A stretch of 64,000 nt of DNA from Candidatus Omnitrophota bacterium. GTDB lineage: Bacteria; Omnitrophota; Gorgyraeia; 1-14-0-20-64-10. The notes beneath the pieces were generated by a model. The model saw only the letters and a list, made by a program, of their open reading frames with translations. It was not told the origin of the DNA and made no database searches. Shown piece by piece: positions 40,529 through 61,200 of this stretch. Made by a program: the position numbers and the translations under genes. The first letter of the stretch is position 1. Every line of letters starts with the position of its first letter. Location of the stretch: NCBI GenBank assembly GCA_023248155.1, contig JAHFFE010000002.1, positions 42,263 through 106,262 of the forward strand, written 5' to 3'.

Positions 40529-41926
40529 TTAATTACCGGCGCCGGTATTGCGCGCCAGTGCGAAGAACGATTCGGCCACATCTTCGGCCACCTGCCCGTT
40601 GCGGATCAAATCCATGATGGAACGCTCCAGCGTGTACATCTTGGCGTTTCCACCGGTTTCAATCACGGAAGGCAGCTGGGAAAGAGTGCCGTTGCGGATA
40701 ATGTTCCGGCCGGCCGAGGTGGGCACGAATACCTCGGTGGCGAGTGCCAGCCCGCCCTCAAGCGCTTGTTCGCGCGGAATCAGGTACTGCGTCAAGACTC
40801 CCTGAAGACAGCTGGCCAGCTGGAAGGTTGCTTGCTGGCGCTGTTCCGGCGAGCAAATAGTCGCGAACCGGTCGATCGCCTGCACGGTGTTGGTGGCGTG
40901 GAACGACGCGAGCACCAGCGTGCCGGTTTCAGCCGCGTTGAGAACTACCTGCGCCGTTTCAGCGTCATCGACCTCACCGACGACAATGACATCGGGGTCC
41001 TGCCGCAGCGCGCGGCGCACGGCCTCGGCGAATGACAGCGTATCGGAACCCACCTCGCGCTGTTTGATCACCGCTTTTTTGTTTTGGTGAATATATTCAA
41101 TCGGCCGCTCCAGGCAGATGACGATGGCATCGCGATCTTCGTTGATCTGTTCCACCAGGCTGTTGAGCGTCGTTGTTTTTCCGGACCCCGTCGGGCCAAC
41201 CACCAGAATCAGGCCGCTGTTTTTGCGCGTCCAGTCAATGACTACCGACGGAAGCCCCAGTTTTTCCCAATGGGTTACTTTCGCCGGGATACTGCGGATT
41301 GCTGTCTCGACCTGGCCGCGCTGCCAATGCACATTCAGGCGGAACCGTTGCGTGACCGAGATCGAGTAGGCCAGATCCATCTCCCGCTGTTTCTCAAACA
41401 TGCAGATCTGCTCATCGGACATGACACTATAGACCAGCGAACGGATCTCGCCGGGTTTCAAAATTGGAAACTTCATCGGCTTGAGCCGTCCGCGCACGCG
41501 CGCGATCGGCGGGCTGTTCGTGGTTAAATGCAGGTCGGAACCGCCCATTTTGATTAATTCTTCCAGCAGGTTGCGGATATCCATCGTTTCCAGCCGCTGC
41601 AAGATTTCGATGGCGCTGGAAGGATCGATTCTTTCGAACTGCAGGCCAAGCCAATATTTTTGCGCCGGGATTTTTTCTTCCACGCGAATGACGCGGCAGT
41701 TGGCCAGCAATGTTTGATTGTACCCGGGAACATGCAGCTGCAACCGTATCGCCGCGCCGATTTCCACAGGGGAAGCGGTGTTAATGAGCGCGCCGGTTGA
41801 GCTGACATTAACGGTGGTGGAGGGAAGCAGTACTCCGAAAGGAGCACCGTCTTTCAGCAGCTGATACGCTGCCACATAGGCCAGTTGGGCGCGATACGCG
41901 CGCGATGTTTCAGTAGTGTTCGCCAT
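40529..41926 (-). CDS. PilZ-domain/PilT-family retraction ATPase fusion
   Basis: N-terminal ~110 aa contain RAYRA (RxxxR) and NVSSTG ((D/N)xSxxG) c-di-GMP-binding PilZ motifs. C-terminal part is PilT-like (Walker A VVGPTGSGKTTTL, Asp box, His box). Confidence 0.75.
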   Translation of the reverse strand: MANTTETSRAYRAQLAYVAAYQLLKDGAPFGVLLPSTTVNVSSTGALINTASPVEIGAAIRLQLHVPGYNQTLLANCRVIRVEEKIPAQKYWLGLQFERIDPSSAIEILQRLETMDIRNLLEELIKMGGSDLHLTTNSPPIARVRGRLKPMKFPILKPGEIRSLVYSVMSDEQICMFEKQREMDLAYSISVTQRFRLNVHWQRGQVETAIRSIPAKVTHWEKLGLPSVVIDWTRKNSGLILVVGPTGSGKTTTLNSLVEQINEDRDAIVICLERPIEYIHQNKKAVIKQREVGSDTLSFAEAVRRALRQDPDVIVVGEVDDAETAQVVLNAAETGTLVLASFHATNTVQAIDRFATICSPEQRQQATFQLASCLQGVLTQYLIPREQALEGGLALATEVFVPTSAGRNIIRNGTLSQLPSVIETGGNAKMYTLERSIMDLIRNGQVAEDVAESFFALARNTGAGN

Positions 41927-42003: not shown

Positions 42004-43446
42004 TTAGCTTGAATAGGTGATAACCACCCGCCCGACGGCGCCGTTATTGGATCCGGACGGAGATCGGGCAAACCAGCCGCATCCTCCGCCTCCGGGAGCT
42101 ACGCCGTCTGTTCCGATAAAGCGTGAACTGTTCAATTCACCAACGCTTCCGGCGCCACCATTTCCTCCGCTTCCTCCCGCCCGTTGGTATAATGTAAAAA
42201 ACGGCGCTATGGCATCCTGGCCCGAAATATTAAATGTTGCCGTACTGGTTCCGCCTCGTCCTACAATAGCTCCTTCAATTCCTCCAGAGCTTCCGCCTCT
42301 TCCGCCTGTAGCGCTAACAGCAGGGGGAACATTCAGTCCTGTTACGGAGGAGGTGCCGCCGTTGCCTCCGGTATTTGAATTTGTTTTCTGACCTGTTCCT
42401 CCGGCACCGACCGTGATGGTCAAAACGGCTCCAGGTGTTACCGTCGCGAGTTGTCTGCCGTAACCTCCACCTCCACCTCCGTGACCAAACTGAGCGCCGC
42501 CAGCGTTGGGGCTTCCGCCACCGCCACCTCCACCTCCCCAAACTTCAACTGTGACTCCTGTTACTCCGGCCGGTACAGTCCAGTTCGTTGCTCCGGCTGT
42601 GCCAAATACCACTTGCGTTGTCAGGCCTACGCTTCCGCTTACGGAGGCTAAAATAGTAGTCCATGCTGTTCCGTTGTAGAGATTTAATTGGTTCGTAGTG
42701 GTGTTGTAAATTATCAGCCCGGCTACTGGACCGGCAATCGCGTTCCGCTCGGCCGTGATCATTCGAGGAGGGAGAAACCCCTTTGTCGTAGAAGTCAGAT
42801 CCAATGCCGCCGATGCGGCCGGCGCCGCCGTTCCGATCCCCACATTCCCGCCCAGAGGGTTCAACACCAGGTTTCGGAAAGCCACATTCTGTGACTCCGC
42901 TTGAATGTAGCCGGTATTGGTAAAGTTGGTGCTGTCGTAATCCCGGTTGAACCCCAGCGCTAGGCCTCCATTCCCCGCAGCGAGGCTCGGCGTGTTCAGA
43001 TAAATGCCGCTTTGCCCGTTCGCTGAAATCCGCGCCCCGCTGGCCCCAGCTACATCCAACGCGTAAGCGGGGGCCGCCGTCCCAATCCCAACCCGTATTC
43101 CCGGAGTTCCCGGCACTCCAGCGTTGTCTGCTCCAGACGAGAAAATGACATTACTGATGGCGTCATCGGCCCCCACCACATGCAGCGGTCCCTGCGGGTT
43201 GGTAGTCCCGATACCCACTGGACCTACGATGAACGCCGCGCCATTGTTTAGAGGAGGGGTTGGCGTTGCCTCAAAATCGGTTCCGACCGTTAAGCTTTGG
43301 AGATGTTGATTGCCTGTGTTGGACGAAGAGGGGTAGTAGGTGACCAGTTCGACGGTTTCCGCCCACGCGTAACCGGCGAGGATGCCAATGATGAGGAATA
43401 AAAACAATGCGTTGCCGCTGGAAAACCTGCTTTTAATTTTTATCAA
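42004..43446 (-). CDS. Secreted glycine-rich protein with tail-fibre-like repeat motifs
   Basis: Signal peptide. Repeated VGIGTTNPQGPLHV, NVGIGTAAP…LDL and KGFLPPRMT…YNGTAW motifs reminiscent of phage tail-fibre/collar modules. C-terminal GGGGGGG-rich region. Confidence 0.5.
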   Translation of the reverse strand: MIKIKSRFSSGNALFLFLIIGILAGYAWAETVELVTYYPSSSNTGNQHLQSLTVGTDFEATPTPPLNNGAAFIVGPVGIGTTNPQGPLHVVGADDAISNVIFSSGADNAGVPGTPGIRVGIGTAAPAYALDVAGASGARISANGQSGIYLNTPSLAAGNGGLALGFNRDYDSTNFTNTGYIQAESQNVAFRNLVLNPLGGNVGIGTAAPAASAALDLTSTTKGFLPPRMITAERNAIAGPVAGLIIYNTTTNQLNLYNGTAWTTILASVSGSVGLTTQVVFGTAGATNWTVPAGVTGVTVEVWGGGGGGGGSPNAGGAQFGHGGGGGGYGRQLATVTPGAVLTITVGAGGTGQKTNSNTGGNGGTSSVTGLNVPPAVSATGGRGGSSGGIEGAIVGRGGTSTATFNISGQDAIAPFFTLYQRAGGSGGNGGAGSVGELNSSRFIGTDGVAPGGGGCGWFARSPSGSNNGAVGRVVITYSS

Positions 43447-43522: not shown

Positions 43523-44023
43523 GTGGTAGCTTCCTATACAATGAACCGCTGGAGACCCGTTCTCACGATGATCGCCGCGCTGGCGGCCGGTTTTGCCATC
43601 GGCGCCGGGATCGGCTGGATCCACCGCCAATCGCGGCCGGCACCCGCTCCGGCGCTTCCGGCCCAAACCCAGTTTCGCATCAACGGCCTGATCGATATCC
43701 ATCCGAAATTCAAAAAAAGAGTCAAGCAGTCCGATGTTTTATTTCTCGTGGTTCGTCTTGAAGGGCAGGCCGTTCCGTACGCGGTTAAAAAAATAGCCCC
43801 GGTTTCTTTTCCTCTGCCATACGCGATTGGCCCCGAAGACCGGATGCTCGGAGAAGCGTCGGAACCGCTGAGTCCCGGCCGCAAAATCTCGCTGGCGGCG
43901 CGGCTGGACCACGACGGAGAAGTGTCTGCGAGTCCCGGGGATTTGGAGGGGAGCCCTGCCGAAGGATCATTCGAGTTGCCCGCCGATTCTCTGCATATTT
44001 TAATCGACCGCGTCGTGAAATAA
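43523..44023 (+). CDS. Hypothetical membrane-anchored protein
   Basis: N-terminal TM (PVLTMIAALAAGFAIGAGIGWI); no motif recognised. Directly upstream of the ECF sigma gene. Confidence 0.4.
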   Translation: MVASYTMNRWRPVLTMIAALAAGFAIGAGIGWIHRQSRPAPAPALPAQTQFRINGLIDIHPKFKKRVKQSDVLFLVVRLEGQAVPYAVKKIAPVSFPLPYAIGPEDRMLGEASEPLSPGRKISLAARLDHDGEVSASPGDLEGSPAEGSFELPADSLHILIDRVVK

Positions 44024-44028
44024 AGGGG

Positions 44029-44054
44029 GGAACTTTTTCCTGAACAAGGGGTCT
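44029..44054 (+). promoter_or_regulatory. ECF-type promoter P1 (GGAAC-N17-GTCT) in front of the sigma gene; probably autoregulated
   Basis: -35 GGAAC at 44029-33, 17-nt spacer, -10 GTCT at 44051-54, only 2 nt before ATG 44057, which implies a leaderless mRNA. Confidence 0.55.
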
Positions 44055-44056
44055 TT

Positions 44057-44641
44057 ATGAGTGACGCGGAGCTGGTTGAACAAGCGCGTGCCGGAGACCG
44101 GCAGGCATTTGATCAACTGATGCAACGCTATGAGCGCGAAATGATCGGCGTGGCCTATCGAATGCTGGGCCACTCCGAAGACGCGGTCGATTTGGCACAG
44201 GAGGTGTTCTTGCGCGCCTGGCGCGGGCTCGGCCAGTTTCGCGGCGAAGCGTCGTTTCGCAGCTGGCTTTACCGGATCGCGCTCAATCTGGCGCGCAACA
44301 AACGCCGGTGGTACGCGCGCCATCGGATTGCTTCGATGGTTTCATTAAGCCCGTCCGACGAAGAGACCGAAGAAGGGGACCCTGCGCCGGTTGTACCGAT
44401 CGCTGACCCCTCGACGGATCCGCGTGCCGAGGCGCAGGCGAGTCAGTTTCAGGAAGCGGTGCGGCAGGCGTTGGAAAAACTTCCGGCGGAATTTCGGGAA
44501 ACGGTGATATTAAGGGATATTCAACAGTTGTCGTATGAGGAAGTCGCGCAAGCGACCGGACAACCGGTTGGAACGGTCCGGTCGCGGTTATCCCGCGGCC
44601 GGCATTTGCTGCGGGAAGCGTTAAAAGGAATTTATCCATGA
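44057..44641 (+). CDS. ECF (group IV) sigma-70 factor
   Basis: Region 2 (…DLAQEVFLRAWRGLGQFRG…SWLYRIALNLARN) and region 4 HTH (LSYEEVAQATGQPVGTVRSRLSRGR). Confidence 0.9.
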   Translation: MSDAELVEQARAGDRQAFDQLMQRYEREMIGVAYRMLGHSEDAVDLAQEVFLRAWRGLGQFRGEASFRSWLYRIALNLARNKRRWYARHRIASMVSLSPSDEETEEGDPAPVVPIADPSTDPRAEAQASQFQEAVRQALEKLPAEFRETVILRDIQQLSYEEVAQATGQPVGTVRSRLSRGRHLLREALKGIYP

Positions 44642-45591
44642 ACTGTCAGCAGTGCAGCGAACATCTTTCGGCGTACCTTGACGGACTGCTGTCGGCCTCT
44701 GAGCGGCAGGCGCTGGAGAGCCATTGCGCCGGCTGCGCCCGGTGCGCGGCGGAACTCGCCGATCTTCAGAAAATCCTGATAGCGCTTCCTCAATTGCCGC
44801 AGCCGCCGGTTCCGGAAAATTTCCGCCGCCGTGTCTGGTCTGAGATCGACCGGAAAGGACGGCCGCTCGATTCCTGGCTCATTAAATTGCCGGTAGGCGC
44901 TTTGGCGACGGCGGCCGTTATTTTATTGGTCGCGCGGGTTTCGCAAGATACCATGCCGCAAATGAAGGAACAGGCCGTGCTTTCCGATGTTGCCGCTGCT
45001 CGTTTTGCCGAGCCGACTATGCGACAGCAGAAGGCAGCTCCGCTTGCTGAACAAGAAGAATCAGTATCTGCAAAGGTCATTAATCAAGATAAAAACAAAA
45101 TGGAGTTAAAAGACAAAGCCGATCGATCCGAAGAAACATTGGGAAAATCCCAATCGGTTTCAGCGGCCGCGTCGCCTCAATTAGCGCCGCAACAAAACAG
45201 GGCTTCTATGAAAATGTTGGAAACGGAAGATGGAGAACTTGTTTCTGGGAGGAAAATGTCCGCCGATAGTTCTTCGGCAGCCAGCTTGGTTGCCGATGGT
45301 TTGGAAGATAAAAAATCCAGTTTCGATTCTGCTTATGGCGAATCTGAGCGATGGTTTTTAAGAGTAGAAGATCCATCGGCTACGCAGGTTTTGGTTAGGC
45401 ATATCCTCCAAGAAATGAATGCTTTCAATATTCGGTCGATTTCGCCCTACATAACCGAATTTCAGGTCTCGTTCGGCCAACGCGATTCTTTAAAACAGTA
45501 TTTAAATGAACTGGGCGATCTTCAGCAAGTATCTTCGGAAGATTCCACAATCGAAACAATAACCATTATTGTTCTCCAGCGAACATCGTAA
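44638..45591 (+). CDS. Zinc-binding (ZAS-type) anti-sigma factor, single TM, periplasmic C-terminal domain
   Basis: ATGA overlap with the sigma gene. CQQC…HCAGCARC HxxxCxxC-type motif. TM at PVGALATAAVILLVA. Confidence 0.75.
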   Translation: MNCQQCSEHLSAYLDGLLSASERQALESHCAGCARCAAELADLQKILIALPQLPQPPVPENFRRRVWSEIDRKGRPLDSWLIKLPVGALATAAVILLVARVSQDTMPQMKEQAVLSDVAAARFAEPTMRQQKAAPLAEQEESVSAKVINQDKNKMELKDKADRSEETLGKSQSVSAAASPQLAPQQNRASMKMLETEDGELVSGRKMSADSSSAASLVADGLEDKKSSFDSAYGESERWFLRVEDPSATQVLVRHILQEMNAFNIRSISPYITEFQVSFGQRDSLKQYLNELGDLQQVSSEDSTIETITIIVLQRTS

Positions 45592-45598
45592 ATTTTTG

Positions 45599-45624
45599 GG
45601 AACTTTTTCTTCCGCCCGGTGTCT
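45599..45624 (+). promoter_or_regulatory. ECF-type promoter P2 (GGAAC-N17-GTCT) before the precursor-MNIO operon
   Basis: GGAAC at 45599-603, GTCT at 45621-24. About 55 nt including the 5' UTR and GGGAGG Shine-Dalgarno are nearly identical to P3. Confidence 0.6.
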
Positions 45625-45653
45625 GCATCAGTAGAAAAGGGAGGAATAAACCA

Positions 45654-45863
45654 ATGAAAATTCCAGCGTCAGTGTTAGCGGTCATGTTGGTTGGATTGGG
45701 AAGCGTCGGCGTGATGGGCTGTGCCGCGCACCAGACTCCGACTGAAAAAGCACCCAAAAATAAACCGGACTCTGTTGAGCCGGCTGCCAACCCCCAACCC
45801 GAAACACCGAATCGCCCGAGTCGTTCTGCCGGTTATGAGTGTCGTGCCTGCGGAATGGGATAA
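45654..45863 (+). CDS. 69-aa secreted/lipobox peptide with C-terminal YECRACGMG; candidate RiPP precursor
   Basis: MKIPASVLAVMLVGLGSVGVMG|C signal + lipobox. Pro/Glu-rich linker, C-terminal CxxC. Immediately upstream of the DUF692 gene and behind the GGGAGG Shine-Dalgarno of P2. Confidence 0.55.
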   Translation: MKIPASVLAVMLVGLGSVGVMGCAAHQTPTEKAPKNKPDSVEPAANPQPETPNRPSRSAGYECRACGMG

Positions 45864-45865
45864 AA

Positions 45866-46738
45866 ATGGGGATTCCTCTCGTAGGGCTGTCGTTAATGCC
45901 GGAGGACCCCTTTCGTCAGGCGGCCTACCCTCTTTTTGAAGCGGGGGAAGTCGATGTTCTGGAATGGAGTTTTGATATGGGGTGGGCCGGCGCTCCGTTG
46001 CCTGAATGGATGGAGCAACTGCTCCATCTTTATGGGCAGCGGGGCCGCCTGCTGGGGCATGGAGTTTCATTTTCGCTCTTGTCCGGACAGTGGACCGACC
46101 GCCATCAGAGGTGGCTGCAATTATTATCGGAAGAAGCCACTCGCCACCGGTACCGGCATATCTCCGAACATTATGGATTTATGACGGCCGGAACTTACCA
46201 GAAAGGGGCTCCATTACCGGTCCCCAAAACTCCCGATACAGTTCGTCTCGGGCAGGACCGGTTGCGCCGGCTGGCCGAAGCGGCCGGATGTCCGGTCGGG
46301 CTGGAAAATCTGGCGTTTGCGTTTGGCGCTCATGATGTTTGGGATCAAGGTTCTTTTTTGGAAGAACTGCTGGAATCAGTGGATGGCTTTCTTCTGCTCG
46401 ATCTTCATAATCTCTACTGCCAGTCGGTAAATTTCAAAGCGCCTTGGACTGAATTAGTCGCGCAATACCCGCTCCATCGCGTTCGGGAGCTGCATCTTTC
46501 AGGCGGGTCCTGGTTCGCCGGTGAGCCGTCTTCCCGCTATGAACCGATCCGGCGCGATACGCACGATGGCGCTGTGCCCGAGGAACTTTTCGCTATGCTG
46601 CAGTCCATTTTGAAACGGGCTCCGGCGGTTGAAGCGGTAATTCTCGAACAGCTGGGCGATTCATTAGAGAGCGACGAATCGAAGGTTCGATTCCAGGCCG
46701 ATTACCGGAAAATTCGGGCGATTGTCCATGGACAATAA
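45866..46738 (+). CDS. DUF692 / MNIO (multinuclear non-haem iron oxidative) enzyme, MbnB/TglH/BufB-like
   Basis: Start at ATG 45866 (MGIPLVGLSL…), 3 nt after the peptide stop. HGVSFSL, SEHYGF, PVGLENLAFAF, LLLDLHNLYCQSVNF, VRELHLSGG and RRDTHDG match the conserved DUF692 TIM-barrel blocks. Confidence 0.8.
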   Translation: MGIPLVGLSLMPEDPFRQAAYPLFEAGEVDVLEWSFDMGWAGAPLPEWMEQLLHLYGQRGRLLGHGVSFSLLSGQWTDRHQRWLQLLSEEATRHRYRHISEHYGFMTAGTYQKGAPLPVPKTPDTVRLGQDRLRRLAEAAGCPVGLENLAFAFGAHDVWDQGSFLEELLESVDGFLLLDLHNLYCQSVNFKAPWTELVAQYPLHRVRELHLSGGSWFAGEPSSRYEPIRRDTHDGAVPEELFAMLQSILKRAPAVEAVILEQLGDSLESDESKVRFQADYRKIRAIVHGQ

Positions 46739-46934
46739 AACCTGCGAAGATAAAAACCTCGATAATTTCCAAAGCCGCTTGCTGGAGCTTATGCTGCAGC
46801 CGCTCTCGCAAGAACAGCGCTGGAGAGCTCTGAAAACAGACCCTCTTTTTATACCCTACCAGAACTACATCGCCTCATTTGATCCGCGCATGATGGAAGT
46901 GGCCGCGCAGATTATCCGGAAATGGACTGTTTAG
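46722..46934 (+). CDS. 70-aa protein resembling only the N-terminal (substrate-recognition) part of the DUF2063 MNIO partner
   Basis: Overlaps the MNIO 3' end by 17 nt. LDNFQSRLLELMLQP…YQNYIASF pattern resembles the DUF2063 N-terminus; the C-terminal domain is absent. Confidence 0.4.
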   Translation: MSMDNKTCEDKNLDNFQSRLLELMLQPLSQEQRWRALKTDPLFIPYQNYIASFDPRMMEVAAQIIRKWTV

Positions 46935-46937
46935 CCG

Positions 46938-46963
46938 GGAACTTTTTCCTCCGCCCGGTGTCT
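46938..46963 (+). promoter_or_regulatory. ECF-type promoter P3 (GGAAC-N17-GTCT) before the 639-aa secreted protein gene
   Basis: GGAAC at 46938-42, GTCT at 46960-63; near-duplicate of P2 including UTR and Shine-Dalgarno. Confidence 0.6.
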
Positions 46964-46991
46964 GCATTAGTAGAAAAAGGGAGGAACGACG

Positions 46992-48911
46992 ATGACTATT
47001 CAAACAAAGATTTTCGCGATTGCGGTGGCAGCGGTAGCGTGGATTACAGCCGGCCAGTCTTTTGCCGAGGCAACGACCGAGCCGTATTCATTGGAGCAGG
47101 GCCGTTATTCCGCGGTTGTCGACGGGGAAAAAGTTAAAATTCAGGCGGCGCTGGAATTCAAGGTGCTTGAAGACGGCCTGATCCAGATTCCGGTTTCGTT
47201 TGGCGGCGCCGAAATTCTGGATCTGAAATTATCCGGAGGATCCGCCGTGTTGGCGGTTGAGAACGACCAATACACGGTTCGGATTAGCCGCAAAGGAACC
47301 GTTCGGCTGACGGCCATGTTGATCGTGCCGTTGTCGCGCAATGCGGATCAGGAAGGGTTTTATCTCGAGATTCCGCAGGCGGTTTTTTCTTTCTGCACGG
47401 TCACGGTTCGGCGCGCCAGCGTGCAGTTAAGTCCTAATTATGCGGCCGCCGGAACCAGTCAGACCCGCGGCGATCAGACGATCATTACGCTGCCGTTGGG
47501 CTTAAAGCGGCAGGCCCAGGTTTTCTGGACGGTCCGCCCAATCCAGGAAACGCCGAAAACAACAGAACCGGTGGAGCCGGTTTATTTGGCGAATCTGCAG
47601 CTGCTGGGCACGCTGGAAGAAGAAACATTCCGTTGTTTGGCCACCGTTGATTTGCATCTGCTGCAGGGCGAATTAAAAACGGCTTTGTTCGAGCTGCCTT
47701 CGGGCTGGACCGTTACCGGGGTGCGCGGGGGTTCCGGCATTGCGGATTGGAAGACCGAGGCGGCCGGTTCGAATCAGCAGATCACGGTTATTTTCAACCA
47801 GCCGTTCAAGGAGGGGAACCTTCGTCTGCTGATTGATGCCGAACAACCGCTGAGCAGCGGCAGTGCCTCGGTTTCTTTGCCGAGTATTATTCCGGTCGGC
47901 GCAAAACGGTTAACGGGCCAATTGGCGCTGGCAACGGCCACGGCCATGGAATTGAAAGATCCGGTGATGGAAGGGGTCAAGCGGATCGATGTCCGGGAAT
48001 TGCCCGACGAATTGCGCGCGATGGCCAACGCGCCGGTCGTGGCGGCATTTCGTTATATGGAAGCCCCTTACCATGTGACGACCCAATTAATCCGTCCCGA
48101 AGAATTGCCGGTATTGGTGGCGATCGCTGAATCGGGAGAGTTAATCACGGTGGCTGCGCCGACGGGTGAAACCATTACGCGCGCGATTTATCAAATCCGT
48201 AATAACAAAAAAACAACGCTGAGCGTCACACTGCCGGCGGGGTCTACGCTCTGGTCGGTGCTGGTCGACCAGCGTCCGGTGAAGCCGTCGGCCGGACCGC
48301 GCGGGCAGATTCAAATTCCGATCATGAACAACCATGGTCCGGAAACGGTCTTCCCGGTGGAAATCGTCTATGTCCAGAAAACCGGTTCATTGAAATCGTT
48401 ACTTGGCCAAGTCCGTTACGAAGGTCCCGGCCTCGATATCCCGGTCACCGTTTCGTCCTGGAAACTGCTTTTACCCGACGGATTGATAAAGATCGGTTAT
48501 TCCGGCAATGTAGAAGCTGGTTTTTCGGTGAACACGGTGCCAGTCGAATTGGCTGCTTATCGCGATGTTTCGGCGAATGCGGCGCTCCGACGGGACTCTG
48601 CCCGATGCCAAAAAGTATTAGCCGCTGCTCCGGCAGCGCAGTCGTTGGCCGATTGCGAGTATAAGGTAAAGGAAGAATTTCAGGAGGTGGTTGGTAAAAC
48701 TCAGCAAACCGGCGTGCTGCCGTTCCGGATTTCAATTCCGCAGAGCGGCCGCGTTTACCGGTTTGGCCGGTTGCTGGCCGTCAACGAGCCGATGTCGGTC
48801 CAGATTAATTATGTCCGGACATCCGCAATGCCGTTCGCCAGCGGCGGAATGGTGTTTGTTGGATTGATGGGGCTGGCGGGTGTTGCCCGGCTGGTTCGTG
48901 CCAAGAAGTAA
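46992..48911 (+). CDS. Large secreted beta-rich protein with C-terminal TM anchor; member of the ECF regulon
   Basis: Signal peptide MTIQTKIFAIAVAAVAWITAGQSFA, C-terminal GGMVFVGLMGLAGVARLVRAKK. No catalytic motif recognised. Confidence 0.55.
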   Translation: MTIQTKIFAIAVAAVAWITAGQSFAEATTEPYSLEQGRYSAVVDGEKVKIQAALEFKVLEDGLIQIPVSFGGAEILDLKLSGGSAVLAVENDQYTVRISRKGTVRLTAMLIVPLSRNADQEGFYLEIPQAVFSFCTVTVRRASVQLSPNYAAAGTSQTRGDQTIITLPLGLKRQAQVFWTVRPIQETPKTTEPVEPVYLANLQLLGTLEEETFRCLATVDLHLLQGELKTALFELPSGWTVTGVRGGSGIADWKTEAAGSNQQITVIFNQPFKEGNLRLLIDAEQPLSSGSASVSLPSIIPVGAKRLTGQLALATATAMELKDPVMEGVKRIDVRELPDELRAMANAPVVAAFRYMEAPYHVTTQLIRPEELPVLVAIAESGELITVAAPTGETITRAIYQIRNNKKTTLSVTLPAGSTLWSVLVDQRPVKPSAGPRGQIQIPIMNNHGPETVFPVEIVYVQKTGSLKSLLGQVRYEGPGLDIPVTVSSWKLLLPDGLIKIGYSGNVEAGFSVNTVPVELAAYRDVSANAALRRDSARCQKVLAAAPAAQSLADCEYKVKEEFQEVVGKTQQTGVLPFRISIPQSGRVYRFGRLLAVNEPMSVQINYVRTSAMPFASGGMVFVGLMGLAGVARLVRAKK

Positions 48912-48991
48912 AAAGAGTGGGCTCCCTGACCAGGTTTTCAGGGAGCCCGGTTCTTTGTTCTTTTTGATTCTCTGCGTGGTAAAATAACAGT

Positions 48992-54937: not shown

Positions 54938-55208
54938 CGTCACCGTCGCGCGCTTCCGTCAGGCAAACCCTTTTTCGAGTCGGCTCGTGTATGGGGACCG
55001 TGGACACGCTCGGAATTGATTACCCATTCCATCGGTGCGCCGAGGCGCCTGGTGGCGTAACTTCCGCTATCGCCAGCCGCTCTGTCTCCGGCCTTGCCGA
55101 AGAACAATTCGATTCGGCCTCCGCCAAGGTCCACTTGCCCCATATCCCGATCCGCCTCTACCCACGCAGGCGCTTTGGTGACGCGGGTGATGTAAAAAAT
55201 AGATAAAC

Positions 55209-55243
55209 TTGCATTGATTTATTGTAATTTATAAGGTATAGTT
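55209..55243 (+). promoter_or_regulatory. Sigma70-like promoter in an AT-rich island before the giant gene (TTGATT-17 nt-TATAGT)
   Basis: -35 TTGATT at 55214-19, -10 TATAGT at 55237-42. ATG at 55255 has no obvious Shine-Dalgarno, so the leader is very short or absent. Confidence 0.4.
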
Positions 55244-55254
55244 TCTCTATCATC

Positions 55255-58200
55255 ATGAAACACCAATCTAGTCACCCTATGGGGCCGCGAACCCCATTTT
55301 TATTTGGCCGTTTTTTGAGCGCTTTGCTAATCATTAGCATGGTGCTGACGATCCCGCATGCCTATGCCGACACTCTGCGCGTTTCCAACGCCGGTCAGGA
55401 AGAGAATCCAGTTCGCACCCTTCTGGAAACCGAATTATCCGCCGACCAGAAGGCGGATGCTGAAACTTCTCTTTCCATAAAACAAGCAGTCTCCGAGGAA
55501 GACGAAGACGAAAATGAGTTTGAATGGAGAATGCCGTTGCCGAAACAAGCGGGTGATTTCGAGCTGAACGAAGGTTTTCTGTCGGATGACCATCCGGCAG
55601 TTCGGGTTGTATCCGAGCGGCTGAACGCGCTTCTTCCTGATCTGAAACCGGATGAACGGCCTCAATTGCGGGTCCTGGCTTCCCGCGGCCAGGGGATCCA
55701 GGCCCTGATGTTTGAGGATGGCACCCTCGTGGTAAGCCCAGAATTGGTAGATGTGGTCGAATATGAAGAGGAGTTGGATTTTGTCCTCCTGCATGAAATC
55801 AACCACTGGCATCGAAAACATATTAAGCAAACGGAGCGACTTCTGGAAAGCGGAGGAATTCTCACTGCCGTAGTGCGCTCGTTGGGATTAGACAGGTACC
55901 AGGAGTATGAGTCGGATATGGCCGCTTTCTGGGGGTTGCTCGATCGCCGGCGCAGCGGGTTGGGGGCCGTGATTTTTATGGAACGTCTGGAAAAGGAACG
56001 CCTGGAGAAAAAGAGGATCATGGTGGATTGGGATCTCGCGCACGGGACAATGCGGGACCGGATCCTGAATATGAAGAGTTTGATCCCATTGGTGCATATG
56101 CAATATCTAGACGCACCCCTGCATCCGATGGACCCGTCGGTCCGGCAGTCGCTCTCCTCCCTTCCGATTGAAGGGTTAATGGATCGATTGATGAGGATTC
56201 CGAGCCGGCAATCCGGAGTTCAAGAAAAGCATCTGGAGGCGCTGGAGCCGGAAATCCGGGCCCTCTCTCCCGAACTTCGTCTTCAGTTTATCGGTTATGC
56301 GGTGGGCCTGATGGATCAAGCGTTTGCTCATGCGCTGACGGAAATGGAATTGAGAGTAATTAATCTTGACAGCGAGAGAAACGCGGCGGGCGATGTGATT
56401 TGGAGTAAGGAAGAATTGCGCCGTCTTTCTGAGGTGTCGGGTCGCGTGAACTATGCCCCGCGCGCTATACCGCGCTTTTTGCACTTATGGAATGAAACCG
56501 TTTCCGGGATGCTCTCTGGAGTTTCTCCTGAGGTAGCGATTTTCCTGAACCAGCTTCTTTACAAACTGAATATGGAAGGACGTCTTTATAACATCCTGGA
56601 GGATCAAACCTTTGAAGGCCTAAAAGAAGTTCTTCTATCGGAAACGGATGCGGAACGGGAATCGGTGGATGAAGAGCTTCTGCAGATCAAAAACCATCTC
56701 CTGGCACAACGGGAAAGCTATTTATCCGTTTTGGAATTGCCAAAATTGGAGAATGCTTTGGAGGTGTTGGAAAATCCGGTTTCAAGGGCGGAATGGGTGG
56801 ATCGGCTCGGAAGAATGTCCCGAATGGGAGCTGGAATCAACGCCGGTTTGTCGTTTATGGTGGAGCAGATCTCTTCCACTATGGCTCAGCGGCCCGGAAG
56901 AGATTTTCTTTCGGAAACGGGGGAGCTGCTGGCTGCGTTTCGTGACCTGATGAGCCGATCCGAAGTCCTGCGTCAGGAAACCGTGGTCCGGCATATGAAC
57001 CGGGTTTGGACCCAGCTTTTTATGAGACAGGCGGCGCTTCTGCATACCGAAGCAGCGGGCCTGGAAGAAGGGTTCCATAAGACGGTTGCGGAGGTGGCCC
57101 GGCGGCATGGTTTTCAGGAGGATGTCACCGGGATCAGAGAAGAGCTTAGAGTCCATCCGGAGATGAAACCCTGGGTTGGAAAATACTTTGATGCGTTTAC
57201 TCAGCAGGAGTCGCTGTTTCGACGGTTGGATCAGATTGAGGAAGACCTTTCAAAAATCGATGTAAAGGATCGAAAAGCCGCCTCCGCACCTTATCAAATC
57301 CTGTTGCTGGAGGCCGCGAATTTGCTCAACGGTGTTCCCGAGATTGTTCCTGTGGAAGGCGAACTACGGAAAAGAATCGATCGGGCTGAATTCAAGATCC
57401 GGTATTTGAACAGGGTGGTGGGGCTGCGGGTCAATTATAGAGATTTCACGCTCTGGGGACCAGAGCAAGCCCTGTTGCCCGATCCGATTTCGATGGATGA
57501 TCTGCGGTTTCTGGTTGGCTGGTGGGCTTCTGTGGCGGAGGACAGTCGGGAGTATCAGGAAGGGGTTAAGCTCCTCTCACAAAAGGAACAATGGATGGAT
57601 CATTGGAAGAAAGTGGCCAGAGTGGAGGAAGTGAATGCTTTGGCGGACACATTGACGAGTCCCAGTGAAGCGGCGCAATCCATAGGGACGGTCATCCACA
57701 GCGGTCTTGCCGGGTCCCAAATCCATTCCGAAGAAATCAGGAAGGTTTTTTACGATTTGGCGCAAGAAGTATTGGAGCGTGACATGGCCCAGGCAAAGAG
57801 CGAGGAGGTGTTTTTTGGTTTATTGGATGGTTACGCCCAGCGGTGGCCGGTTCGTCCTAATGCTGAGGTGGTACGAAAAGGGGTGCAGTTCCTGAACGCT
57901 TCGAAAAGCACCGATCAACCCCTGATTTGGCAGAGGAGATTACTGTTGAGTTTCTTTGCCTCCGACCCGCTCATTCGACGTCAATTGGGCGAGTATTCAG
58001 TGCTTCAAATCGTTCAATCAGAGAGGGTCTCCTTCGATGACGCCTACGCGCTTTTGTTCGAGCGCTACAAACCGCAGGGAACGGCCGGTGGGTTGAGGGC
58101 CCTGAGGGCTTTGCTGGATCGGGCACATACCTACCCGGAACTGGACCGGTTGAAAGAGGCCGGCGCCGATTTCCTGAAGTTCCTGCAAAGTTCTCTGCTG

Positions 58201-61200
58201 GCTGGTGGAGCGGTGCTCGCGGAAGGGGGTGTGGAGCATTGGCTCGACGTCGGGGACCGATCCCAGCTTTTTCGATCTTTGATGGCCAGCGGGCAGGACG
58301 ATTGGCTGCTGCGCCGGCAGGTGGCTTCTTATTGGACGGGAATTTACAGCGAAATAATTAACTCCATGCTTATGAACAATTTCGAGCGCGACCTGCGCTA
58401 TTGGGACGACGCAGACGAAATCGAGGACTGGAGCGGCAGGAGTCCGTCTATCTCTGTGAACCGTGTCAGCCCGTTTGAGCTGGCCATGGACCGGATTTAT
58501 ATGTTGGGGGATCCCGAACGCTACGCCATGCTTCGAAAGCTGCTGGCGGATGAGGATGGTATTTTGCGCAGGGCCCGCCATGACCTGTTGGATGCTTTCC
58601 TGAACCAGCACCTGGATTCCAGCGGAGAGGAGCGGGCGGCTGAAGTGGTTTCTGAGGTGCTGGGGACAGTTCTCAAGATCATGCCCGAAGACGATCTGTT
58701 TTTGCTGGTTGCCCCGTTGTTGATGGATCGGATTGGCAACCCGCCGGAATCTCCCGCGGAACCGGCTGAAGCAAGCGTGGAGACGGAAGATTGGAGCCGG
58801 CGGATTGCGCTGCGACTGGCAAGGAGTGCCGGGCTTAGGAAGGGTCAGCGCCAGAATTTTGTGGAGACGATGGCGCCGGCGCTTGAAAGAAAGTTTTCCT
58901 GGTTCTTGCGGGGACACGGTCCGGATGTGACGCCCGACCCTGGAGCGGAGCGGGATCTTTTCTCGGTGGTTCCGCCGGAGTTTTACCAGAACAGAACGCA
59001 TCCGATGAGTCCGCTGGAGATGACTCTCGAGACGGCCCGCCAGCTGGGAGCGCCGGGGGTGCGGTTCCTTCAGTTGGTGGGGCAGACGGTCCGGCTTCCT
59101 GAAGATTACCGGAAGCAATTTCTGACCGTTTACGACAATGTAGAGGGGCAGTCTTTGCTGTCCGTCGCCGAAACGATCCGGAATCTTCTTCCAGAGTATG
59201 CCGGGCGGATTCAGCGGTTTGTGCGCCGTCTTGGAGGAGGCTCGATCTACACGGTATGGGAAGTAGAGGTCGTGGCCACCGAGGAGGAATATCCGGGCCG
59301 CGCCGGGGAGCTGGTCCGTGAGGCGGTGCGGGTTGTCAATCCGAACGCGCTGTATCGCTCGCGCAAATCGGTGCAGGTGATCCGGGACGCGCTGACCCAG
59401 CTGGCTCAAGAACAGCCGCAATCCGGCTATGCGCTGGCGCTTCCCATGGTGGATCTTCTGGAGGAGTGGATCGCGAAAGAGCTGGAGGACACTTCTTTTG
59501 AAGCCGATGATCAAGAGTTCCGGAGCCGCTGGAACGGCTGGGCCCCCGAAGGATTCCAGAAAACGGTAGTGGTCCCGCGAACCCTGCCCACTGGCATTCC
59601 GGAGATCCGACGGGCGGAGTTCCTGCCCGGGGAGAGCTTCACGTCCCTGGATTCGCTGGAGAACGCAGAACAGAGAGAGCTGGTTGCGTTGGCCAGTCAT
59701 TTTTATTTTCAACAGGTGGTGGATTCGGTTCAGCAAGTTTTGTCCGGGCAGAGAGAGGAGACCCTGATCCTCTCCGATATTTCTGTTGGGAATTTTCTGA
59801 GGACTTCCGAGGGACATCTGGGGGATCTGGACCGAGGGATGTTCTTGAAGTTTAATCGGACGGAGGCCGGGGTTCTCATGAATTTCAGCTTTGCCGCCAC
59901 GGTCCAACAACGGGCCGAGGTGTTGATCTCGCATCTCTGGACGCTGGACCTGAACCAGGCATCCTCCGAAGACCTTGCCCAGCGGGGGGTGAGCCCGGCC
60001 TCCATGGCGGCGGAGATTGCGGGCGGATTGGACCCTGTCGGCTCCATGGAGAAAACGGCTTTGGATGTAATTTTGGGCATTCAAAACCGTGGGTTGCGTG
60101 TTCCATTGCAGTTCCAGTTATTGTTCAAGAATTTCAATGCTTTAAGAGAGATCGCTGACGGGGAGATGAGCCCGCAGGCCCGTTTCGGTTCTTTGGAAGC
60201 GGCTCTGCAGTATCTCCCCACCGCTGGCCAGGAAGAAAACGGAACTGATCAGCTGGTGAATGGTGCGCGCGGCCAGCTGATTCTTTACCATCGGTTTAGA
60301 GCCGCCGCTACCACCTCGGAAGCGCTTAAACAATATGGTTTATACGAAGCAGCTAGGATCAAACCCCGGTTAGAAAAAATTCTTTCTTCCGCTGCGCTAG
60401 GAGGACTTAAGTATGCGGTCATTAATTTAATGGAACATGGAAATGGCGGCGACCTGGAAATTTTCTTAACCCAGCCCGATGCCGACGGCATCTCTCGCGT
60501 GACGGTCCGTCTGGCCGATGATGGCCCCGGGATTGCGGATCCTCGTGAATTGCTGGCACGAAGCATCGAGGCGCATTCCGGCGTGCGGGCAAGTCGGTAT
60601 GAAGAACCGCGCGGATACGGCTGGAAAAATATCGCCGCCCCGTCCGCTGAAATGACAGTCGAGTCGGGCCATGTGAAATGGCGACTTTTCAAAGAGGCAA
60701 ATAATCTTCGTTTTAAATTGGACGAGGAACCCTCCGATGTGAGTAAAGGCACTGTGATTACTGTGGTTTACGAATCCACCGCTGCCGGGCAGGAAGAAAC
60801 AACATGGAAGGGGCCGACCGATCCGGTTGATGCGGTAACCCGGTTGGTGAACGCATTGATCGCGCAGGGATATAAAGGAGAACAGAGGCTTACTTTAGAC
60901 CGGACATCAACACTGCTCAAGCGATCGCCAACACAGCAAGCGCTTTCTTTGAATCCGGGGCTGGTTGCCGAGATGAACAGCCTCTTGAAAAGAGTGGCTG
61001 CAGTAAAAGAACCACGGATGAAATTATTGAAACCGGTTTGGACAAAGTTCCACGGATCAGAATTAGCAGTCGTCATTATTCAAAAAGGACCCGTTCCGGT
61101 TCGCACCGATCCCGTTGAAGTGGTATCCCGCTTGGTGGATGCATTGATTGCGCAGCAGGCCAGCGGAGAACGGCAGCTTGCTTTAAAACAGACAGTACGG

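Follow-up and report, generated by a model that had tools for sequence, protein, structure and literature searches.

A lipobox peptide upstream of a split ChrH-like MNIO in Omnitrophota is a probable DAG-RiPP precursor

Results

A 69-aa lipobox peptide is encoded directly upstream of a ChrH-like MNIO

The 64,000-nt stretch of a Candidatus Omnitrophota genome analyzed here (contig JAHFFE010000002.1, positions 42,263 to 106,262; hereafter the window) encodes a 69-aa peptide with a signal peptide, a lipobox and a C-terminal CRACGMG motif, followed by an MNIO (DUF692) enzyme and a 68-aa protein, Hc. The best overall explanation of this locus is that the peptide is a DybA-type, chryseobasin-related precursor, that is, a DAG-RiPP (RiPP, a peptide synthesized on the ribosome and then post-translationally modified), and we assign this a probability of about 0.75. 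The locus is very likely a further member of the DAG-RiPP class within the ChrH/DybH/MelH subfamily, and we hold with high confidence that the peptide is a genuine ChrH-type substrate.

MNIOs of the ChrH subfamily act on a C-terminal CPxCGxG motif and convert it, with a mass change of -4 Da, into a macrocycle plus hydantoin, the structure of which was obtained by NMR for DybA/DybH (PMC13056109, PNAS 2026). According to the same study, in many DybA-type precursors of Bacteroidota the 'third conserved cysteine' is the lipobox Cys of a signal peptidase (SPase) II signal, and DybA-type precursors are triacylated in E. coli and were named 'DAG-RiPPs' (PMC13056109). A sequence-only reading of the present DNA, which had regarded a lipobox-anchored MNIO substrate as unusual, is thus out of date on this point. 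In Cyanobacteria/Melainabacteria, the helical bundle of the enzyme comes as a protein of its own, MelHc; it binds MelH, and MelH is inactive without it; throughout the subfamily this domain is ~7.8 kDa, fused or separate (PMC13056109). The function of the ChrH-subfamily products is stated there as unknown.

The 69-aa open reading frame (ORF) in the window (45654..45863, + strand; translation MKIPASVLAVMLVGLGSVGVMGCAAHQTPTEKAPKNKPDSVEPAANPQPETPNRPSRSAGYECRACGMG) is a real gene. Its translation confirmed the signal peptide and lipobox noticed in the sequence-only reading. The signal peptide comprises residues 1-22 (45654..45719, +; MKIPASVLAVMLVGLGSVGVMG), and the mature part downstream of the predicted cleavage site (CAAHQTPTEKAPKNKPDSVEPAANPQPETPNRPSRSAGYECRACGMG) begins with the lipobox Cys23 (45720..45722, +). 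The lipobox VMG|C23 passes a PROSITE PS51257-style rule with the +1 Cys at position 23, and it is by this kind of rule only that the lipobox was assigned. The +2 residue is Ala. A Pro-rich linker with 8 Pro in 39 residues (residues 24-62) leads to the core CRACGMG (residues 63-69; 45840..45860, +) and the stop codon TAA (45861..45863, +). The peptide contains exactly three Cys, C23, C63 and C66, the last being the fourth residue from the end, so that the final CxxC indeed holds the only Cys besides that of the lipobox. The strong Shine-Dalgarno sequence GGGAGG, which had also been pointed out, occupies 45639..45644 (+), with 9 nt between it and the ATG. NCBI, Logan and ENA assemblies record an identical peptide sequence, and the ORF is the sole one ending in CxxCGxG in the six-frame translation of the window, against 0.03 expected from shuffles.

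The stop codon is separated by 2 nt, not by the 3 nt given earlier, from the in-frame ATG of the MNIO gene (45866) on the same strand, which suggests that the two genes are translationally coupled. A GTG at 45839, which would make the MNIO gene overlap the peptide gene, was rejected as the start codon since homolog alignments start at the residues encoded from ATG-45866.

The best family match of the peptide is NCBIfam NF050125 (ChrA_rel_RiPP, 'chryseobasin-related MNIO class RiPP peptide'; E=8.7e-8, 32.8 bits), and the alignment spans the full profile (positions 1-56), signal region included.

The MNIO is split from its C-terminal helical bundle

The enzyme encoded next to the peptide (45866..46738, +; 290 aa, without a signal peptide) is a ChrH/DybH/MelH-like MNIO. 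It matches Pfam PF05114 (1.5e-31, 110 bits; cutoff 25), and its best NCBIfam model is MNIO_ChrH (2.6e-102, 342.6 bits), with ~4-fold more bits than the next. The other NCBIfam models gave 86 bits (BufB), 73 bits (HvfB), 36 bits (ApyH) and 17.5 bits (MbnB), which for BufB and HvfB is below the respective cutoffs of 310 and 360. The nearest solved structure is that of TglH (8hci; E=3.6e-13, 52.6 bits). Every His/Asp/Glu/Asn column conserved at ≥97% across 120 homologs is retained in the MNIO, namely H65, H102, E147, D179, H181, N182, H210, D231, H233 and E261. From the structures of MbnB and TglH, we take the conserved His/Asp/Glu set to be the iron ligands.

Alone, the MNIO covers positions 2-283 of the 363 positions of the ChrH profile and lacks the C-terminal extension. 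The missing part corresponds to a 68-aa ORF overlapping the MNIO stop codon by 11 nt (Hc, MelHc-like; 46728..46934, +), which the sequence-only reading had overlooked along with the extracytoplasmic function (ECF) promoter wiring described below. When MNIO and Hc were concatenated, they gave a single collinear match to ChrH profile positions 2-360 of 363. In blastp, Hc aligned over its full length with the final ~58 residues of two fused homologs of 381-383 aa (P0043, 7.6e-8; P0101, 1.4e-5), and its AlphaFold2 (AF2) model is a four-helix bundle (pLDDT 82). The split arrangement is common among relatives: 118 of the 120 nearest MNIO homologs are of the short type, and in at least 22 of a set of 38 related loci the next gene after the MNIO encodes an Hc homolog. 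Judged from these alignments, Hc is the separate ChrH C-terminal domain that supplies in trans the helical bundle without which the MNIO is encoded.

The C-terminal CxxCGxG motif is conserved among precursors of split MNIOs

Searches with the peptide itself, both word-indexed and by exhaustive HMMER, retrieved only the peptide, one ortholog and one insignificant match of 469 aa, and none of the 459 matches to peptide-derived patterns in a metagenome scan was a relative. As the peptide is too short and of low complexity, relatives were sought through the enzyme.

The ortholog lies on an 8.3-kb contig (L001) with a gene order identical to that of the window: Ig_CycH, sigma factor, anti-sigma factor, peptide, MNIO, 68-aa ORF, a 641-aa protein, DUF212 and LysM/YkuD. 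Its peptide (P0002, 76 aa) keeps MKIPAS...GLGSVGVMGC and ends in CPPCGRG. The two peptides differ in the linker by three in-frame indels that leave signal peptide, lipobox and C-terminal motif in frame, and the dN/dS ratio between the peptide genes is 0.21 in the signal region and 0.46 in the linker.

To survey more distant relatives, one genome per GTDB species was scanned with the MNIO, which yielded 38 loci at 41-59% identity from about seven phyla (Verrucomicrobiota, Cyanobacteria, Obscuribacterales, Planctomycetota, Chlamydiales, Myxococcota and Acidimicrobiales). About 31 of these loci, together with the window and L001, encode 40 ORFs ending in CxxCGxG, almost all of them directly upstream of the MNIO; one precursor, in L019, is on the opposite strand. 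The search pattern demanded both Cys and Gly5 but not Gly7, and Gly7 is nonetheless present in all 40 precursors. At position 2, 30 of the 40 have Pro, and the remaining 10 show A, Y, E, T, G, H, I or R, with Arg in the window precursor alone. The C-terminal CxxC core proposed from the sequence therefore stands as far as the Cys pair is concerned, but the core that is conserved extends over 7 residues, CxxCGxG, at the very end of the peptide.

The N-termini of these precursors vary from SPase I-like signals and signal anchors to lipobox signals or none. Nine precursors, from the window lineage and seven Myxococcota loci, carry a lipobox with its Cys at residues 21-24; they have M1, K2, I3, P4 and L8 in common, as well as the lipobox Cys and the C, C, G and G of the C-terminal motif, and hypervariable linkers of ~40-110 residues lie between these conserved parts. 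In the Myxococcota precursors, signals starting with MKIP hold a canonical lipobox Cys at the same place (IAGC with C22-23; VSGC, VAAC and VAGC with C21). The invariant C-terminal Cys motif, conserved lipobox Cys and hypervariable linker in this alignment are those expected from the sequence-only reading, and the comparative evidence supports its proposal that an exported lipobox precursor offers a C-terminal Cys pair to the adjacent MNIO.

Several loci of the survey showed other precursor architectures. In two Planctomycetota loci, the homologous precursors (L009, 5181..5984, 267 aa; L013, 2664..3491, 275 aa) end in CPGCGMG and combine a twin-arginine motif (SRRGWLK / RRSFLF) with a lipobox (LMGC / FAGC). 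These signals make them candidates for lipoproteins that are exported by Tat and serve a split ChrH-like MNIO as substrates, a combination that does not appear in the main text of PMC13056109. A Chlamydiales precursor of 61 aa (L006, 5791..5976) ends in CAACGTG and has no recognizable signal peptide or hydrophobic N-terminus; either it is cytoplasmic or its start codon was mis-called. In a lipobox precursor of Polyangiaceae (L017, 4917..5966), an internal CPACGTG is followed by more sequence and then by the terminal CPACGMG. Two tandem precursor genes accompany a single MNIO in L003 (5424..5993), L004 (33..419), L010, L014, L020 and L040, and the paralogues often differ at motif position 2 (CAGCGLG with CPPCGRG, CEGCGRG with CPGCGMG), a pattern that suggests natural tolerance at the 'Pro' position.

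Proposed maturation of the peptide

By analogy to DybA/DybH and MelA1/MelH/MelHc, a cytoplasmic complex of MNIO and Hc would recognize the extreme C-terminal CRACGMG. An O2-dependent four-electron oxidation would link Cys63 to the β-carbon of the former Cys66 and close a macrocycle, while the backbone would rearrange to a hydantoin (imidazolidinedione) involving Gly67 and Met68, leaving a thiohemiaminal thiol at a net change of -4 Da. The modified peptide would then be exported by Sec, Lgt would attach diacylglycerol to Cys23, LspA would cut the Gly22-Cys23 bond, and the N-terminus exposed in this way may be N-acylated by Lnt. A lipopeptide of 47 residues is the predicted product, in which a 39-residue, Pro-rich and disordered membrane tether carries a macrocyclic head. 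With Ala as the +2 residue, it has no Asp-type inner-membrane retention signal.

Evidence against a DAG-RiPP and alternative explanations

A number of observations weigh against this assignment. The first concerns family cutoffs. The peptide stays under the curated NF050125 cutoff of 40 bits, and the MNIO, at 342.6 bits alone and 351.2 bits with Hc, is under the MNIO_ChrH equivalog cutoff of 600. The latter model appears to have been built on Chryseobacterium-type enzymes. All eight split-clade precursors tested fall under the NF050125 cutoff, the window peptide scoring highest and the others 16-28 bits, so that its score reflects a narrow model and not a defective peptide. The second concerns the core. 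The published motif is CPxCGxG, the window peptide has Arg64 in place of Pro, and no experimentally tested non-Pro variant was found in the literature searched. The remaining points bear on lipidation. Position -2 of the lipobox is Met, which fails the strictest lipobox consensus, [LVI][ASTVI][GAS]C; G-C-A|A is also a plausible SPase I site; the conservation of Cys23 can be tested in only two orthologs of the lineage; and no lgt, lspA or lnt was found among the ORFs scanned in the window.

These points leave room foremost for a ChrH-type substrate that is secreted via SPase I and not lipidated, Cys23 being incidental. ChrA and MelA1 are both SPase I substrates (PMC13056109), SPase I-type or signal-anchor N-termini occur in many split-clade precursors (Verrucomicrobiota, Cyanobacteria and Acidimicrobiales), the sequence G21-C23-A24|A25 offers small residues at -3 and -1, and Met is uncommon at lipobox position -2. 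Against this, the N-terminus passes the PROSITE-style lipobox rule, and VGVMGC is identical in the L001 ortholog although only about half of the linker is conserved. Furthermore, the homologous MKIP signals of Myxococcota have a canonical lipobox Cys at the same position, and the full-length match to NF050125 takes in the signal region. We therefore consider secretion without lipidation unlikely, and lipidation of the peptide, as in DybA-type precursors, would be the likely outcome.

Alternatively, the peptide could be a small lipoprotein of the ordinary kind, its CxxC serving without modification as a metal or redox site, with the adjacent MNIO incidental or with Arg64 making it a dead substrate. 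CxxC motifs are common as such sites, Arg is found at position 2 in none of the 39 other precursors, and both curated family cutoffs are missed. These considerations are outweighed by the recurrence of the precursor-MNIO-Hc arrangement among the 38 loci of about seven phyla, by the 2-nt gap suggestive of translational coupling, by an MNIO and Hc that are intact with every invariant residue in place, and by the record of the same peptide sequence in NCBI, Logan and ENA assemblies. As for a dead substrate, a quarter of the natural precursors (10/40) lack the Pro, and an in-silico R64P change raises the NF050125 score by only 3.4 bits. An unmodified CxxC thus has little probability, and by analogy to the characterized enzymes we expect with good confidence that CRACGMG would be modified despite Arg64.

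A copper-chelating peptide of the bufferin/oxazolin type, bearing a thiooxazole or oxazolone-thioamide under the control of a metal-stress sigma factor, is very improbable. Some bufferins and oxazolins do carry lipoprotein signals, and Buf1 clusters contain sigma/anti-sigma genes (PMC12452194, PMC13056109), but the MNIO scores far below the BufB and HvfB cutoffs, the locus has neither a DUF2063 partner nor a DoxX gene, and the peptide is devoid of DUF2282, 6-Cys or EGKCG features. Moreover, the DybH product showed no chromophore (PMC13056109). The free thiol of the predicted product may still have a metal-related function.

The precedent of TglA, invoked in the sequence-only reading, did not hold. 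A TglA/pearlin-type scaffold whose C-terminal Cys is processed by a TglH-like MNIO would agree with TglH as the nearest solved structure and with a C-terminal Cys chemistry common to both systems, but this explanation is hardly credible: the enzyme is ChrH/DybH-like, at 342 bits versus 52.6 bits for TglH, the peptide has Gly-Met-Gly and no Cys at its very end, and there is no match to the PEARL (TglB) family and no TglI-like gene among the neighbors scanned. The TglI partner is described with an RRE fold (PMC10214503).

The cassette lies within a putative ECF regulon

Upstream of the DAG-RiPP candidate are the genes for an RpoE-like ECF sigma factor (44057..44641, +; 194 aa) and a membrane anti-sigma factor (44638..45591, +; 317 aa), the latter overlapping the sigma stop codon by 4 nt. 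The sigma factor carries Sigma70 regions 2 and 4 only (Pfam Sigma70_r2, r4_2 and Sigma70_ECF) and matches NCBIfam RpoE TIGR02939 at 8e-41, under the equivalog cutoff. The anti-sigma factor has an N-terminal zf-HC2 domain with HxxxCxxC (PF13490, 3e-8; NCBIfam antisigma NF052375, 7e-13).

A σE-like motif, GGGAACTTT-N14-GTCT, has three exact matches in the window versus 0.05 expected, and no shuffle reached three. The matches form ECF-type promoter-like motifs in the 33-nt gap before the sigma gene (44028..44054, +; GGGAACTTTTTCCTGAACAAGGGGTCT), in the 62-nt gap before the precursor gene (45598..45624, +; GGGAACTTTTTCTTCCGCCCGGTGTCT) and in the 57-nt gap before p639 (46937..46963, +; GGGAACTTTTTCCTCCGCCCGGTGTCT), the gene downstream of Hc. 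The motif is kept at the same three positions in L001 while the flanking intergenic bases have diverged, and it also precedes the p639 homologs in L047 and in L041, which is without the cassette. Its form GAACTT-N16-TCTG resembles the classical sigma-E-type consensus, which fits the RpoE-like family matches of the sigma factor. Its presence before the sigma gene suggests autoregulation.

The GTCT of the sigma promoter ends 2 nt before the annotated ATG of the sigma gene (44028..44059; GTCTTTATG), and the sigma mRNA would therefore be leaderless or its start codon lies elsewhere. A direct repeat of ~55-60 nt comprising the promoter, the 5′ untranslated region (5′UTR) and the Shine-Dalgarno sequence was found before the peptide gene and p639 (45598..45653 and 46937..46991). 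The two copies are near-identical in the window, with 1 mismatch in the 27-nt promoter, and more diverged in L001, which hints at recent gene conversion between them in the window genome. A terminator-like hairpin of 12 bp, 8 of them GC, followed by a T-rich tail (48918..48949, +) is located after p639 and would close the transcription unit.

A sigma-70 promoter scan of the region gave nothing above the shuffle expectation. The promoter/5′UTR cassette matched once in a metagenome scan, in the AT-rich L045 without long ORFs, and this match was judged to be due to chance. A further point to be set against the interpretation is that promoter function is assigned here from motif similarity only. 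Expression of the cassette under ECF control would nevertheless be fairly likely. In this model, the RpoE-like sigma factor would drive transcription via GGGAACTTT-N14-GTCT, and production of the lipopeptide would set in once the sigma factor is freed from its membrane anti-sigma factor.

RpoE-type ECF modules have autoregulated GGAAC-N16/17-(G)TCT promoters (the E. coli sigma-E-type consensus). The module in the window is like them in its overlapping genes for the sigma factor and an anti-sigma factor with a ZAS domain, and in the -35/-10 motif before the sigma gene and the targets. It is unlike them in the targets themselves, which are a RiPP cassette and an uncharacterized β-sandwich membrane protein.

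The cassette was probably inserted into an older ECF module

This membrane protein, p639 (46992..48911, +), is a 639-aa envelope protein with an N-terminal signal helix and a C-terminal transmembrane helix. It has no Pfam match even at E≤10 and no NCBIfam match. We found 38 homologs, the nearest named one coming from a metagenome-assembled genome (MAG) of 'Candidatus Omnitrophica' (L041). The AF2 model, based on an alignment of 26 sequences, shows tandem β-sandwich domains (pLDDT 78, pTM 0.36), and a Foldseek search of the PDB returned generic tandem β-sandwich matches only (ribophorin I/Ost1, integrin legs and ITIH VIT; TM-scores ~0.2).

The neighborhood is conserved at 43-83% amino-acid identity in L041, in L042 (a second assembly of the same genome) and in L043, in the order PilZ-ATPase, sigma factor, anti-sigma factor, p639 homolog, DUF212, LysM/YkuD, AccA and CobA, whereas the peptide, MNIO and Hc are absent from all three. 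Taken by itself, this synteny also points to Omnitrophota as the probable affiliation of the window genome. A third member of the window lineage is represented by L047, which keeps the promoter cassette before its p639 homolog, and by L046, a contig that begins inside the MNIO. As the sigma/anti-sigma/p639 module occurs without the cassette, the cassette is probably an insertion into an ECF regulon: precursor, MNIO and Hc probably entered an older module in the interval from its anti-sigma gene to p639, with duplication of the promoter/5′UTR. p639 is thus part of the ancestral ECF module and outside the conserved RiPP core. The nearest genomic relatives of the MNIO are in other phyla at ≤60% identity, which fits acquisition by transfer; no GC or skew anomaly was detected across the cassette.

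We put forward more tentatively, as a possibility with the odds against it, that the cassette and its duplicated promoter/5′UTR were captured into a pre-existing RpoE-like regulon with p639 as the ancestral target, and that the lipopeptide acts as an envelope-stress-induced effector, perhaps together with p639.

In L043 (2633..5759; GCA_023248095.1), a 182-aa ORF and a VIT/VWA protein of 853 aa stand between the anti-sigma gene and the p639 homolog where the window has the RiPP cassette, and this site seems open to varied cargo. In the window, the sigma gene is preceded by a gene (43523..44023, +) for a small exported protein that has an Ig-like domain of the CycH type (PF23892); in L041 and L043 this gene lies downstream of the p639 homolog, a local rearrangement in the conserved module.

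Other features of the window

The rest of the window is ordinary chromosome, with genes for class II ribonucleotide reductase, leucyl-tRNA synthetase, type IV pilus/type II secretion components, histidine kinases and two tRNAs, and a survey of the whole window revealed no lipoprotein-pathway, protease or RiPP exporter genes that would belong to the system. Adjacent genes at 40529..41926 (-) and 42004..43446 (-) encode a PilT/T2SSE-type ATPase, which has a c-di-GMP-binding PilZ domain at its N-terminus, and a secreted, glycine-rich protein of the PTL_trimer/Gly_rich_2 type; synteny with Omnitrophota relatives extends to the ATPase but not to the glycine-rich protein. Across ~3 kb (54940..58015), neither an ORF of ≥150 aa nor a tandem repeat is present, and no Rfam family reaches the gathering score. 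The 688-aa ORF that follows (58018..60084, -) has a high content of R, Q, H and P and appears to be a spurious frame in antisense.

Comparison with known systems

The locus most resembles DybA/DybH of Dyadobacter crusticola. Both have a short precursor with an SPase II signal and lipobox Cys, an unconserved linker and an extreme C-terminal CxxCGxG, encoded directly upstream of a ChrH-subfamily MNIO with no RRE- or DUF2063-type partner, and in both the predicted product is a membrane-tethered macrocycle/hydantoin lipopeptide. They differ in the helical bundle, which is fused in DybH but a separate 68-aa protein in the window, and in the motif, CPACGMG in the DybA type versus CRACGMG. The Bacteroidota-style KDD/Asp surface-export signature after the Cys is absent from the window peptide. 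DybA, in a Bacteroidota host, neighbors SusCD/transport genes, whereas the Omnitrophota peptide has an ECF sigma/anti-sigma pair upstream.

The MelA1/MelH/MelHc system of a Melainabacteria MAG shares the split MNIO of ~290 aa, the small helical-bundle subunit and the CxxCGxG substrate. MelA1 is, however, a 34-kDa TPR protein with an SPase I signal and not a 69-aa lipobox peptide. ChrA/ChrH(/ChrI) of Chryseobacterium has the same enzyme subfamily and C-terminal Cys-x-x-Cys-Gly-x-Gly target (PMC10214503), but ChrA, unlike the window peptide, is longer and SPase I-secreted and its product is S-methylated (+10 Da) (PMC10214503). Further genes of the chryseobasin cluster, for ChrI (DUF1772), an epimerase and an M42 peptidase, have no counterpart at the window locus. 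Buf1 bufferin clusters likewise place an exported, Cys-containing MNIO RiPP beside sigma/anti-sigma genes, and a subset of bufferins are predicted lipoproteins (PMC11626156, PMC12452194); they differ in the MNIO clade, the DUF2063 partner, the precursor family and the thiooxazoles used for copper binding.

ECF-promoter wiring was not found described for the ChrH/DybH/MelH subfamily in the literature searched. For a family whose function is unknown, this wiring is a lead in the form of an envelope-stress induction hypothesis, and if the wiring is functional, it would be the first physiological handle on chryseobasin-like RiPPs. The subfamily probably extends to Omnitrophota, a phylum not named in the main text of PMC13056109. 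The survey and the window together show that natural precursors can do without the 'conserved' Pro of CPxCGxG, and the Arg-for-Pro core could give a macrocycle of different shape or charge. The window joins features that were published apart, namely the lipobox peptide known with fused enzymes in Bacteroidota and the split MelH/MelHc-type enzyme known with SPase I-secreted 30-kDa proteins in Cyanobacteria.

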